This document shows, in pieces, positions 17,276 through 19,752 of a stretch of DNA of 64,000 nt (position 1 is its first letter; each line of letters opens with the position of its first letter). Source of the stretch: Patescibacteria group bacterium (GTDB lineage Bacteria; Patescibacteriota; Patescibacteriia; SG8-24; DYFX01); assembly GCA_041659045.1 (NCBI GenBank), contig JBAZZB010000001.1, forward strand, positions 390,111 to 454,110, written 5' to 3'. The notes below the pieces were generated by a model that was given only the letters and a program-made list of their open reading frames with translations, made no database searches and was not told the DNA's origin. Made by a program: the position numbers and the translations under genes.

Positions 17276-17863
17276 ATGGAAAAACTTCAGATCGTCGATT
17301 TTACGACTGGCGAGCCCACTGGTGAGCACATGCCGCGCGCCGAAGCCATCGCTTGTAGCGCTTGGTGCCGTTCCACCAACGTCTTCGTTCTCAATCCGCA
17401 AGGTGAAGTGCTCTGTCACCGCCGTTCGTCACTCAAAGAGCGTTATCCTTCTGTCTGGTCCACGCATCTTGGCGGCCATGTCACCGAGGGCGAATCGTTC
17501 CTGATGAACGCCGCAAAAGAACTTGAGGAAGAATCCGGCATCCGCGTGGTGCCGGAAGCCCTACTCGCCTGGCGCACCAGCAAAATCGAAACGGCCCGCC
17601 TCTGGGTGCGCGAGTTTGTCGTCATGATCGATCCTTCGACCGTCACGCTCACTCCACAACCCGGCGAAGTCGATGAATTCGAATGGATCAGCCCATCAGA
17701 CATCGTCCGCCGTTCCAGAGCGGAGAAATGGCTGGCCGGCACCCACGACTTCCGCACAGAATATTTCTGCATGCGCGCGGTCCTCACCGCCGCCCACGCC
17801 ATCGGTGCCATCCGCATCCCCGATCCACTGCGCGCGTGGCATCCGGAGATGGTGGCGGAATAA
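17276..17863 (+). CDS. NUDIX hydrolase, paralog of 10557-11102.
   Basis: GGHVTEGESFLMNAAKELEEESG; the N-terminus aligns with the other paralog; start chosen at MEKLQIVDF. Confidence 0.75.
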   Translation: MEKLQIVDFTTGEPTGEHMPRAEAIACSAWCRSTNVFVLNPQGEVLCHRRSSLKERYPSVWSTHLGGHVTEGESFLMNAAKELEEESGIRVVPEALLAWRTSKIETARLWVREFVVMIDPSTVTLTPQPGEVDEFEWISPSDIVRRSRAEKWLAGTHDFRTEYFCMRAVLTAAHAIGAIRIPDPLRAWHPEMVAE

Positions 17864-17865
17864 TG

Positions 17866-17890
17866 AAAACGACCCGATGAGGGTCGTTTT
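17866..17890 (+). terminator. Rho-independent terminator: aaaacgaccc-gatgag-gggtcgtttt.
   Basis: Perfect 9-bp stem flanked by A/T runs, directly after the TAA at 17861-17863. The sequence is duplicated at 19728-19752. Confidence 0.6.
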
Positions 17891-17983
17891 CATTTACAAC
17901 AATCAAAAACCCGTAGCTTGAATACCTTATGGTGTATACGGTGGCATAGTCAGGACGCGGTATTCCTCGCCGTCTCATCAGGT

Positions 17984-18016
17984 ACGTGGGTCGCCCCACA
18001 CGCCTGCTCATGGCTC
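17984..18016. repeat. 33-nt direct repeat acgtgggtcgccccacacgcCtgctcatggctc. It is identical (1 mismatch) to 26127-26159, which spans the 3' end of tRNA-Asn plus its flank. Putative attL-like island boundary. A degenerate tRNA-3'-half-like sequence follows it.
   Basis: Direct sequence comparison. Downstream ggctcacaggtagcgattccc resembles ggctccgaggctgggattcgaaccc of the tRNA. Confidence 0.55.
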
Positions 18017-18143
18017 ACAGGTAGCGATTCCCACTAGTCTATAAACATTAGTTCTAGCACCTTTGACATCATCGCCAACCGCATGCTAGCCTCCTTCCGC
18101 ATCGACTTGGTGTCGATGGCGTTGCACGGAAGGAAGAGGATAG

Positions 18144-18833
18144 ATGCGACTAGGAAAAGCTCTTTTGGTTTTTGCGCTCATTGGATCGGTATCGGTGGCA
18201 TGTGTTGCCGACATGGACGCCCCGACGTCTGACGACGATGGCGACACTGACATCGGGACTACGGTACAAGCGGTCACGACCGGAAGCTACTCCCCAAGCT
18301 CGGCGGTCACTTATGCGCTAAGCTATTGTGGAATTTCCGGCGAGCAGACCTTGCTAGTAACGGCTGGGTACAATCCATACTACCAATCCTACAACCCCAA
18401 CGACTGCACGAACTTCGTGTCCCAGGCCCTTGCGTTCGGAGGCTGGCAGCCAGTCGGCGGCACGTGTTGGTGGTGCAGCGGATCCTGGTACTACCTCAGT
18501 GCCGGCGACCACAACCGGAGCAACTCCTGGGCCAATGTCTCGGCCTTTCGCACTTTCATGATCAACTCCGGGAGAACCAACGGGGCGGTGTCCATTCCGC
18601 AAAGTCTATCGACTATCCCACGATTCTATGCGGGAGATGTGATCCTGGCGGACTGGACCGGGGACGGCTCGTGGGACCATGCCTACATCGCGACCGGACA
18701 AAACGGCGACGATGTCTGGCTCGCCGCACACACAACAAACCGCTGTGGCGACATAACCCTCAGAGGCGTCCGGCAACAGAAACCTCAAGTGGTCTTCCAG
18801 GGATTCAGGCTCAAGACCACATATACGTACTAG
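18144..18833 (+). CDS. Secreted protein with a putative Cys-His amidase/peptidase domain (NlpC/P60 or CHAP-like; putative-amidase-domain family).
   Basis: Signal peptide; NDCTNFVSQALAFGGW (catalytic Cys candidate) and GSWDHAYIATG (His candidate). Confidence 0.45.
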   Translation: MRLGKALLVFALIGSVSVACVADMDAPTSDDDGDTDIGTTVQAVTTGSYSPSSAVTYALSYCGISGEQTLLVTAGYNPYYQSYNPNDCTNFVSQALAFGGWQPVGGTCWWCSGSWYYLSAGDHNRSNSWANVSAFRTFMINSGRTNGAVSIPQSLSTIPRFYAGDVILADWTGDGSWDHAYIATGQNGDDVWLAAHTTNRCGDITLRGVRQQKPQVVFQGFRLKTTYTY

Positions 18834-18888
18834 AATCGGCCACGTCAGAGGCATCCATTACAGATGCCTCTTTTCTTATTCGGCTGAA

Positions 18889-19482
18889 CTATTGTGCAAT
18901 TCCTTCATCCCTCTTGAACCTCTCAACTGGCATGGATTCTAAGGTGTTCACGTCTTCCCCAACAGGTTCGGTTCTCACGAATTTGTAGGAATTACCCTCG
19001 CGACGGAAGAAGGCGACGCCGCCGGTCCATCCAACATTTCCTTCGCCGGGGATGTGTGCCGAAACGCTTGCGATCATGGCCACGATACGATCCAGGCCTT
19101 CGTATGCTCTCGGCTCACTGATGACCGGGTCCACGTCAATCCCCTTTTTCAGAGATTCGAGAATGGCGGCATATTTCTTTTTCTGCTCAGCGGTGCTCGC
19201 AGCAGACAATTTCGCTTCGTATTCCTTGGGGAGCGTCTCACGGTAGCTGGCTGCATAGTACTCACGGATGTACTCACGCATCGCCTCCTTGTCAGCTTTG
19301 CTCAGGTGCGCCGACATGACGCCATTCCTGGCCATGTAATCCGGCGACAGGCAAGACCAACTGTCGAAGCAGGAGGATCCGGTCTGAGCTTTCCTGTCTC
19401 GCTCCAACCAGAACCAGGATGTCACCCCGACCAATGCGAGGCTGTAGACCACGATAAGGAGTAAAAAATACACTCGCTTCAT
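18889..19482 (-). CDS. Hypothetical membrane-anchored protein.
   Basis: N-terminal TM helix (VYFLLLIVVYSLALVGV); no motifs; low GC. Confidence 0.45.
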   Translation of the reverse strand: MKRVYFLLLIVVYSLALVGVTSWFWLERDRKAQTGSSCFDSWSCLSPDYMARNGVMSAHLSKADKEAMREYIREYYAASYRETLPKEYEAKLSAASTAEQKKKYAAILESLKKGIDVDPVISEPRAYEGLDRIVAMIASVSAHIPGEGNVGWTGGVAFFRREGNSYKFVRTEPVGEDVNTLESMPVERFKRDEGIAQ

Positions 19483-19585
19483 GGTTTTGTCATTAGTTAT
19501 GGTATTGGATCGAATTGCACTGTAAATCTTTCGTTAAGACTAGCTTTTCTGATACCTTGAGTCAACCATCGGCACTCGAAGTATC

Positions 19586-19601
19586 CGGTACCTGGTACCA
19601 A
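19586..19601. promoter_or_regulatory. Motif copy cggtacCTGGTACCAAagggacc, fused directly to the duplicated NUDIX 3' fragment.
   Basis: Same core as 12620 and 17065. Confidence 0.4.
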
Positions 19602-19608
19602 AGGGACC

Positions 19609-19752
19609 GACTTCCGCACAGAATATTTCTGCATGCGCGCGGTCCTCACCGCCGCCCACGCCATCGGTGCCATCCGCATCCCCGACCCACTGCGCGCGTG
19701 GCATCCGGAGATGGTGGCGGAATAATGAAAACGACCCGATGAGGGTCGTTTT
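19609..19752 (+). repeat. 144-nt direct duplication of 17747-17890 (the last ~115 nt of NUDIX CDS 17276-17863 plus its terminator), with 1 mismatch. Remnant or truncated gene copy.
   Basis: Near-identical by inspection. It produces the identical spurious antisense ORFs in the track (17443-17817 and 19497-19679, both starting MRMAPMAWAAVRTARMQKYSVRKS). Confidence 0.8.

Follow-up and report, generated by a model that had tools for sequence, protein, structure and literature searches.

The stretch of DNA analysed here (the window) is 64,000 nucleotides (nt) long and covers positions 390,111 to 454,110 of contig JBAZZB010000001.1 (assembly GCA_041659045.1) of a Patescibacteria group bacterium. 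Within it we found a NUDIX-domain gene whose 3' end, together with the hairpin that follows, occurs twice as a direct repeat. The first copy (R1) ends the intact gene and the second (R2) stands on the far side of 1,716 bp of other DNA (17892-19607), in which the only open reading frames encode an Amidase_6-domain protein and a 197-amino-acid protein, the gene pair of module A. The features of the locus, in window coordinates, are as follows.

17276..17863, plus strand: intact NUDIX gene (IDI/YfcD-like), 195 amino acids, Pfam NUDIX E=4e-17
17746..17891, plus strand: R1, 118 nt of NUDIX 3' coding sequence (last 39 codons and stop) and a 28-nt terminator-like hairpin
17892..17976, no strand: spacer of 85 nt between R1 and a tRNA-Asn scar
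17977..18035, minus strand: scar S''+rem, made up of a degenerate tRNA-Asn 3' end and a copy of the 34 nt that stand downstream of tRNA-Asn
18144..18833, plus strand: module A gene 1, secreted Amidase_6-domain protein, 229 amino acids, Pfam PF12671 E=6e-25
18889..19482, minus strand: module A gene 2, 197-amino-acid protein anchored in the membrane by its N-terminus, unmatched in Pfam, NCBIfam and PADLOC
19584..19607, plus strand: copy 3 of a short junction repeat (TCCGGTACCTGGTACCAAAGGGAC), nhmmer E=3e-7, abutting R2 at the novel joint J2
19608..19753, plus strand: R2, a 39-codon NUDIX fragment and hairpin
19754..19836, no strand: backbone flank right of R2, 42 nt followed by hairpin H' (19796-19836), which is terminator-like on the minus strand

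The two copies of the repeat (R1, 17746-17891; R2, 19608-19753) are 146 nt long and identical at 145 of 146 positions; they start 1,862 nt apart and their identity breaks off sharply at either end. An earlier note on this DNA had reported a near-identical duplication of the NUDIX 3' end and its hairpin, and that description stands, with one mismatch and with one base more at each end of the repeat than had been noted. The mismatch is a T at 17824 in R1 and a C at 19686 in R2. The T is the derived state and lies in a synonymous GAT (Asp) codon, while the C in R2 is the ancestral base, found at this position in all four of the relatives with an orthologous locus (L002, L003, L010 and L011). A chance repeat is ruled out by the length and by the 145/146 identity, and a simple tandem duplication by the flanks, R1 being followed by the 85-nt spacer and a block of island DNA and R2 by unrelated backbone DNA. 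Nor does the repeat fit the target-site duplication of a transposon, for which 2-14 bp would be expected rather than 146 nt; the junction repeat is confined to the right end, the left lacking an inverted partner, and there is no transposase.

The gene that ends in R1 is full length and collinear with its orthologues. Its product is identical to P0129, which is MFA5853884.1 of a Patescibacteria group bacterium metagenome-assembled genome (MAG), and its matches to the NCBIfam IDI/YfcD models are weak and under the cutoff; exact sequence look-ups of the 195-amino-acid NUDIX protein and of a 138-amino-acid open reading frame returned no record. The hairpin at the end of the repeat has a strong stem of 12-14 bp (-21.6 kcal/mol, z=-6.5 in R1; -22.6 kcal/mol, z=-5.1 in R2) and is kept after the NUDIX stop codon in L002, L010 and L011, being absent from L003. 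It has a TTTT run after GGGTCG and was not listed by a terminator consensus scan, probably because the T-run pairs with an upstream A-run. In the NUDIX frame a stop stands 15 codons before the junction with R2, which has no start codon and is therefore a dead, non-functional fragment. The earlier note had taken it for a remnant without remarking on the stop or the missing start, and in annotation it should be marked as a pseudogene fragment.

The orthologous NUDIX loci of the relatives encode proteins with 86-94% amino acid identity to the window's (L002, 94%; L010, 92%; L003, 86%; L011 within this range), and each has one gene end. Since this holds in 4/4 relatives, the duplication is derived in this genome. 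A counterpart of the remnant, which the earlier note would have sought in related genomes, is thus missing from these four loci, and the same single-copy state, with the 1/146 mismatch between R1 and R2, bears out its view that the segment at 18.0-19.8 kb was recently rearranged. In L002, L003 and L011 the NUDIX gene is followed by DUF1295/DUF2177 membrane genes (L002 3498-5073, L003 5717-6683, L011 1148-2890), and in L010 by a truncated DUF1295 gene. These genes are missing from the window (17864-19800) and R2 is separated from H' by just 42 nt of spacer, which argues for a deletion in this lineage. With the relatives' downstream genes missing here, the exact empty site of this strain was not found.

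The DNA between R1 and R2 is of island type and has its own history at a tRNA gene. It contains no recombinase that could be matched in Pfam, NCBIfam or PADLOC (17892-19607). With its tRNA 8 kb to the right stands the following region, which is an attachment hot spot and the source of both S'' and H'.

26081..26228, minus strand: hairpin H (26081-26121), spacer S (26120-26153) and functional tRNA-Asn(GTT) (26154-26228)

The scar S''+rem, which the earlier note did not report, forms a 54-nt repeat with 26120-26173 (85% identity). It is identical at 54 of 58 positions to the scar in L004, against 46 of 54 for the window's own tRNA-Asn copy, and to the left of the amidase gene the same scar is present in L004, L007, L008, L009 and L013. 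From 17984 to 19582 the module A block has 94% DNA identity to both L004 and L013. In those two genomes module A and its left tRNA-Asn scar sit within a tandem array of islands from which NUDIX sequence is absent, and in L012 the gene pair occurs without the tRNA-Asn scar and without NUDIX sequence. L007 shares with the window the synteny tRNA-Asn-Big_5-rpoD-dnaG-tRNA-Ser, and in it module A is directly at tRNA-Asn, bracketed by perfect 44-nt direct repeats (9841-9884 and 11601-11644, spacing 1760) that consist of the downstream spacer and 7 nt of the tRNA, with no integrase gene in the module. In the strain of L007, a Logan unitig (L009) has an identical 30-mer at both ends, which is compatible with occasional circular pop-out of the module.

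The amidase protein is identical to MFA5853885.1, from the same Patescibacteria group bacterium MAG as MFA5853884.1, and behind each of its homologues (96% identity, P0001; 79%, P0002; others at about 70%) stands the same small minus-strand gene; the 197-amino-acid gene itself adjoins the amidase gene in L004, L007, L012 and L013 too. Searches in plasmid and phage collections (blastn) and in IMG/VR (protein and motif scans) gave no match, and no second genome was found with the module A element in its NUDIX gene. The NUDIX downstream flanks of L002, L003, L010 and L011 show nothing significantly similar to the 85-nt spacer (best p=0.08), which has no further match within the window or the fetched loci.

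The DNA to the right of R2, by contrast with the island-type DNA that follows R1, is collinear with the relatives' backbone. Positions 19785-19834 are 98% identical to L011 2945-2994, just past the L011 NUDIX block, and the core of hairpin H is identical in L002, L004 and L011, where the hairpin closes the NUDIX-DUF1295-DUF2177 block. Within the window, H' (19796-19836) and H (26081-26121) form a 41-nt repeat of 90% identity, H marking the terminator downstream of tRNA-Asn. We also noted that a 32-nt form of the hairpin (CAAAGACCCACCACTTTCGTGATGGGTCTTTG) lies at L002 5161-5192, at L004 732-765 and 5690-5723 and at L011 2963-2994, that it is identical or nearly so in genomes whose NUDIX proteins differ by 6-14%, and that a tRNA-Asn 3' remnant (TGGCTCCG...) usually comes after it. 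Hairpin H seems to belong to a larger attachment region of which every island integration makes a copy.

The left neighbour of R2 is a short repeat consisting of a 13-bp perfect palindrome, GGTACCTGGTACC, with a conserved extension on one side (consensus approximately TCSGTRCCTGGYACCAAAGGGACAG). The earlier note saw correctly that a motif, CGGTACCTGGTACCAAAGGGAC, directly abuts the second copy of the NUDIX end (19586-19607) and that a related motif lies at 17065, some 195-210 nt upstream of the NUDIX ATG; it missed those at 12620 and 16083 and the partial one at 15398. A profile search placed copies at 12619, 15398 (partial), 16083, 17062 and 19584. All are on the plus strand, five intergenic regions in succession having one apiece, and the other 57 kb of the window has none. 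Besides copy 3 they are:

12619..12640, plus strand: copy 1, between a CitMHS transporter gene and the terminator of a 287-amino-acid gene
15398..15419, plus strand: partial copy (half palindrome and extension), a weak match, nhmmer E=0.014
16083..16110, plus strand: degenerate copy between two convergent genes, E=6e-5
17062..17090, plus strand: copy 2, between a 232-amino-acid orphan gene and the NUDIX leader, E=5e-6

The 17-nt core of copy 3 is the same as that of the copy at 12620 (17/17), not that of the copy at 17065. The copies at 17065 and 19586 differ at 4 of 26 positions and those of the 146-nt repeat at 1 of 146 (Fisher p=0.002), so the motif pair and the repeat pair are not of equal age. 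The repeat also occurs in the relatives (L004 3336-3360 and 5646-5675; L010 1627-1651; L013 1622-1646 and 1673-1697; L011 2922-2941). In L004 and L013 it adjoins module A and no fragment of NUDIX is close by, it stands immediately left of hairpin H in L004 and L011, and in L010 it truncates the DUF1295 gene. In L013 two inverted copies lie 26 nt apart and resemble a miniature element. The edges of the repeat are sharp, with unrelated DNA on either side: L010 and L013 have an identical 25-mer with differing flanks, L004 and L013 diverge exactly at the edge of the site, and their homology with the window stops at 19582/19583, 1-2 nt short of copy 3. We regard the element as a junction-associated repeat.

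Other roles for the repeat were considered and set aside. It has no Rfam match, and its RNA hairpin does not exceed shuffled sequence in stability (z=-0.85). Restriction avoidance would require a depletion of GGTACC, of which the window shows no sign, with 21 sites observed where 5-19 are expected. Three copies lie 77-136 nt upstream of minus-strand gene starts, as a promoter or operator might, and that reading is disfavoured by the copy at 16083, which stands between convergent gene ends, by the inverted copy in L004 and by the copy that interrupts a gene in L010. As for the earlier note's description of the motif as a NUDIX leader, the motif is a dispersed unit with no clear copy upstream of NUDIX in L003, L010 and L011 and a partial one in L002, and the conserved leader RNA of the gene (about 17146-17270) is not duplicated.

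We interpret the 146-nt repeat as a scar left when two variants of the NUDIX-tRNA-Asn island locus recombined in a Campbell-type (single-crossover) insertion, an event that would have duplicated the homology arm, and we put the probability of this interpretation at about 0.5. The ancestral backbone would have consisted of NUDIX, terminator, short spacer, hairpin H, (islands) and tRNA-Asn. The donor, from a closely related variant of the locus, would have carried R (the repeat sequence), the 85-nt spacer, the S''/tRNA-Asn remnant, module A and one palindromic junction site, and the 146 nt of homology may then have let a donor segment recombine with the NUDIX 3' end of the resident locus. The expected product is an intact NUDIX gene ending in R1, the imported block, and R2 joined to the original downstream backbone. 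The only novel joint would be J2, between junction site 3 and the start of R2, representing either the closure point of a circularised donor or the illegitimate end of a one-sided homologous recombination.

Such an insertion is the best fit because there is one novel joint, because the insert has its own tRNA-Asn scar inside it and no recombinase, and because the module is bracketed by two different repeats. As the S''+rem scar was carried inside the insert as a passenger, the joint used in the window differs from the module's usual attachment (att) site, and the contrast between 44-nt tRNA-Asn repeats in L007 and a 146-nt NUDIX repeat here suggests recombination through whatever homology the molecule carries, not through one fixed site. 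An integrase-free two-gene module found between two different bracketing repeats points to homology-driven over integrase-driven movement of cargo. Campbell integration, and homology-facilitated illegitimate recombination in natural transformation, yield a duplicated arm and one novel joint with no recombinase in the insert, and the arms are near-identical when donor and recipient are close strains. The product in the window matches this prediction, 146 nt being a short but sufficient arm. RecA-type homologous recombination, rather than a site-specific integrase, would have been the joiner, and we infer the donor haplotype and the direction of the transfer. The structure is in this sense ordinary, a duplicated gene end marking foreign DNA that has recombined into the chromosome, and it documents recent strain-level shuffling of islands in a genome of the Patescibacteria (Candidate Phyla Radiation, CPR), a group with poorly described mobile elements.

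Several observations weigh against this interpretation. No genome was found with the proposed donor arrangement of NUDIX, R, 85 nt and S''. The immediate flanks of R1 and R2 have no significant similarity to the relatives' NUDIX flanks; an attempt to name the native copy from the immediate flank was dropped for this reason, and, because these flanks cannot be assigned, the view that R2 is the original copy depends on the distal H' flank and on one single-nucleotide polymorphism (SNP). The order of the copies across the repeat, which has two entries and two exits in the assembly graph, is taken from the MAG assembly. J2 has no demonstrable microhomology and coincides exactly with the border of the conserved palindrome-bearing site, a position that could point to a site-directed mechanism, and sequence by itself does not distinguish homologous recombination from the work of an integrase.

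The earlier note had left room for a mis-assembly at the junctions, and all four repeat junctions are present in independent Logan (k=31) contigs of run SRR18595301. One contig (L016) stops 30 nt into R1, another (L001) corresponds to 17862-19637 and a third (L017) opens 30 nt before the end of R2, the Logan graph splitting exactly at the repeat with a 2-in/2-out topology. Short k-mers cannot order copies at such a break, and L001 starts and ends within R, as would be expected of a circle. Both features would suit an assembly or population artefact, in which the chromosome has a single NUDIX end and the assembler threaded it through the repeat together with an insert and one R that belong to a separate circle or to a co-occurring strain. 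We nevertheless consider an artefact highly improbable. J2 is spanned by unique sequence and is thus physically real, and so spanned is the joint between R and the 85-nt spacer; the SNP, 78 and 67 nt from the ends of the repeat, lets ordinary 150-nt reads phase the copies to either flank; a 1.86-kb circle without a replication gene would not persist; and the source contig is 646 kb long. The 146-nt repeat is all the same a point where short-read assemblies break or mis-join. The earlier note saw in copy 2 a NUDIX locus with an internal deletion. On that reading a unit made of motif, leader, NUDIX and terminator would have been duplicated, or a second copy imported, and about 680 bp between the motif and 17746 would then have been lost. 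Both copies do begin with the motif in the same orientation (25/30 positions match, flanking bases included), and a 3-nt microhomology (CGA) could have mediated the deletion if what came after the second motif once resembled the sequence that comes after motif 2. The scheme is improbable, however, given the 4/26 as opposed to 1/146 differences, the core that motif 3 shares with motif 1 and the company that motif 3 keeps with module A in two genomes, L004 and L013, which lack NUDIX sequence there. The right flanks of R1 and R2 are moreover unrelated, the two copies are separated by an imported block of island DNA, the orthologous NUDIX genes have no clear motif upstream (L002, partial), and three events (duplication of the full locus, deletion, and homogenisation of 146 nt only) are required where one or two would do. 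A replicative template switch would begin with a stall at the terminator hairpin, continue with copying of the island block from another template and end, after a stall at the palindromic site, with resumption 146 nt upstream. The positions of the joints are suggestive, J1 coinciding with the final base of the terminator's stem and T-run and J2 lying 9 nt after GGTACCTGGTACC, but no microhomology can be demonstrated at either joint and a second template with the block is still needed; to our knowledge, template-switch insertion-duplications of this kind are rarely documented in bacteria, and we think this origin very doubtful.

The explanations that call on a recombinase direct attention to the island that lies between H' and tRNA-Asn:

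19838..26080, no strand: island B, with three unknown genes, a serine recombinase and a PHP-ATPase
22022-23326, plus strand: large serine recombinase, 434 amino acids, Pfam Resolvase, Recombinase and Zn_ribbon_recom
23349-26036, minus strand: TrlF-family/Ppl-like PHP-ATPase, 895 amino acids, NCBIfam TrlF 387 bits (cutoff 350), PADLOC Ppl E=2e-42

In site-specific integration the 1.86-kb unit would be a decayed or satellite element whose attachment site (attP) carried a replacement for the NUDIX 3' end, so that R1 was regenerated and R2 displaced by an integrase acting in trans, either the nearby serine recombinase or a tyrosine integrase since lost. A regenerated target with a displaced fragment is the signature that is seen here (for the principle, PMC4383910), and the relatives have the single-copy state. 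The L007 module, in its perfect 44-nt repeats at tRNA-Asn, has a typical integrase signature with no integrase gene and may be mobilised in trans, and the serine recombinase is 2.4 kb away from the element. Against this, the unit encodes no recombinase, the flanking repeat in L007 is a different one and an old att scar lies inside the insert, which makes a dedicated NUDIX-targeting attP unlikely, and no second genome has the element in its NUDIX gene. As far as we know, serine recombinases neither use nor create 146-nt blocks of identity. We therefore hold site-specific integration to be unlikely. Another possibility gives the active part to the junction repeat, as a cassette-type site (like those of integrons or of the staphylococcal cassette chromosome, SCC) or a transposon-end site, with J2 formed when the outer edge of site 3 was joined to a secondary site in NUDIX and captured its 3' end. 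Five same-strand copies in successive intergenic regions (12.6-19.6 kb) and none elsewhere in the window, the sharp boundaries of the sites, a truncated gene abutting a site both in L010 (DUF1295) and here (NUDIX) and the inverted pair in L013 all speak for such a role, and the only recombinase nearby is of the serine type with CcrB as its best NCBIfam match, at 108 bits where the cutoff is 900. Yet no recombinase is linked to the sites and none of the sites is adjacent to the serine recombinase, the last being 2.4 kb away. The full site is kept at J2, where a crossover at its centre would have replaced half; the junction of R1 with the 85-nt spacer and the exact 146-nt duplication go unexplained; and the instances are too few to define a family. 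We know of no serine or tyrosine recombinase core site that resembles this palindrome, with its odd centre and 6-bp arms. Motif-directed joining is accordingly hard to credit, and the same low estimate applies to its wider form, in which the ~25-nt repeat would be the recombination site of an undescribed Patescibacteria cassette-accretion system beside tRNA-Asn, possibly served by the Ccr-like serine recombinase, that delimits units of one or a few genes over 12.6-19.6 kb and that captured the NUDIX 3' fragment at a secondary site in the gene.

The comparison with known systems leads to the same preference for a Campbell-type insertion. Islands in tRNA and tmRNA genes, as mapped by Islander, restore the gene that they target and displace a fragment of it (PMC4383910), and the dusA islands are integrative islands of the same regenerated-target kind (PMC4482086). 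The window agrees with these in that a direct repeat of the target's 3' end brackets foreign DNA, the gene is intact and the other copy dead, relatives have an uninterrupted site, and the surroundings are a hot spot for islands at tRNA-Asn, with scars in tandem. It differs from them in that its unit has no integrase, the block of identity is long (146 nt) and near-perfect, there is no second example in NUDIX, and the copies of module A do not all use one attachment site (tRNA-Asn repeats in L007 and L009, a scar in L004 and L013, neither in L012). With no integrase in the unit and no single att site common to its copies, we class the structure among scars of a known kind and do not regard it as a bona fide integrative element. 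Prophages that regenerate their target include e14 and phage 21, in the 3' end of E. coli icd. In SCCmec composite islands and integron arrays, short sites in the same orientation separate gene units. The window similarly has oriented sites between units beside a conserved gene or tRNA, with a serine recombinase in one unit only; its site, though, is unlike the Ccr attachment sequence or attC, its recombinase unit is unflanked by sites, the recombinase scores far below the Ccr cutoffs, and the units give no sign of moving independently. Module A does recur with a site beside it elsewhere (L004 and L013).

Beyond the duplicated gene end, the surroundings offer some minor observations. Judged by its genes, island B (19838-26080) is probably a small defence island, Ppl being an anti-phage model. 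To the left of the intact NUDIX gene about 6.5 kb (10.5-17.1 kb), holding junction repeats, is extra in this genome, because the L010 locus has only about 220 nt separating its NUDIX leader from the YceI gene (window 9794-10486). This part of the window encodes a 232-amino-acid membrane-anchored protein, WC866_02225 (16291-16989, minus strand), that has no homologue but itself among 5.8 billion clustered proteins. NUDIX-domain genes number three in 7 kb (10557-11012, minus strand; 14740-15264, minus strand; 17276-17863, plus strand).

The leader of the intact NUDIX gene is of interest in its own right. A conserved structured region lies 5' of the gene (about 17146-17270, plus strand) and is absent from R2; its counterparts are at L002 2722-2860, L003 4975-5112, L010 718-855 and L011 372-511, and its homologous loci number more than 240. 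Rfam searches of 12.0-20.3 kb and of the leader, at gathering and at permissive E-values, gave no match, for the leader even at E<=10. RNAalifold predicts 43 base pairs for the leader, 6 of them with compensatory double changes, and a terminator-like hairpin (17238-17263) lies just 5' of the NUDIX ATG. This leader is a candidate for an unclassified riboswitch or attenuator of Patescibacteria IDI-like NUDIX genes.

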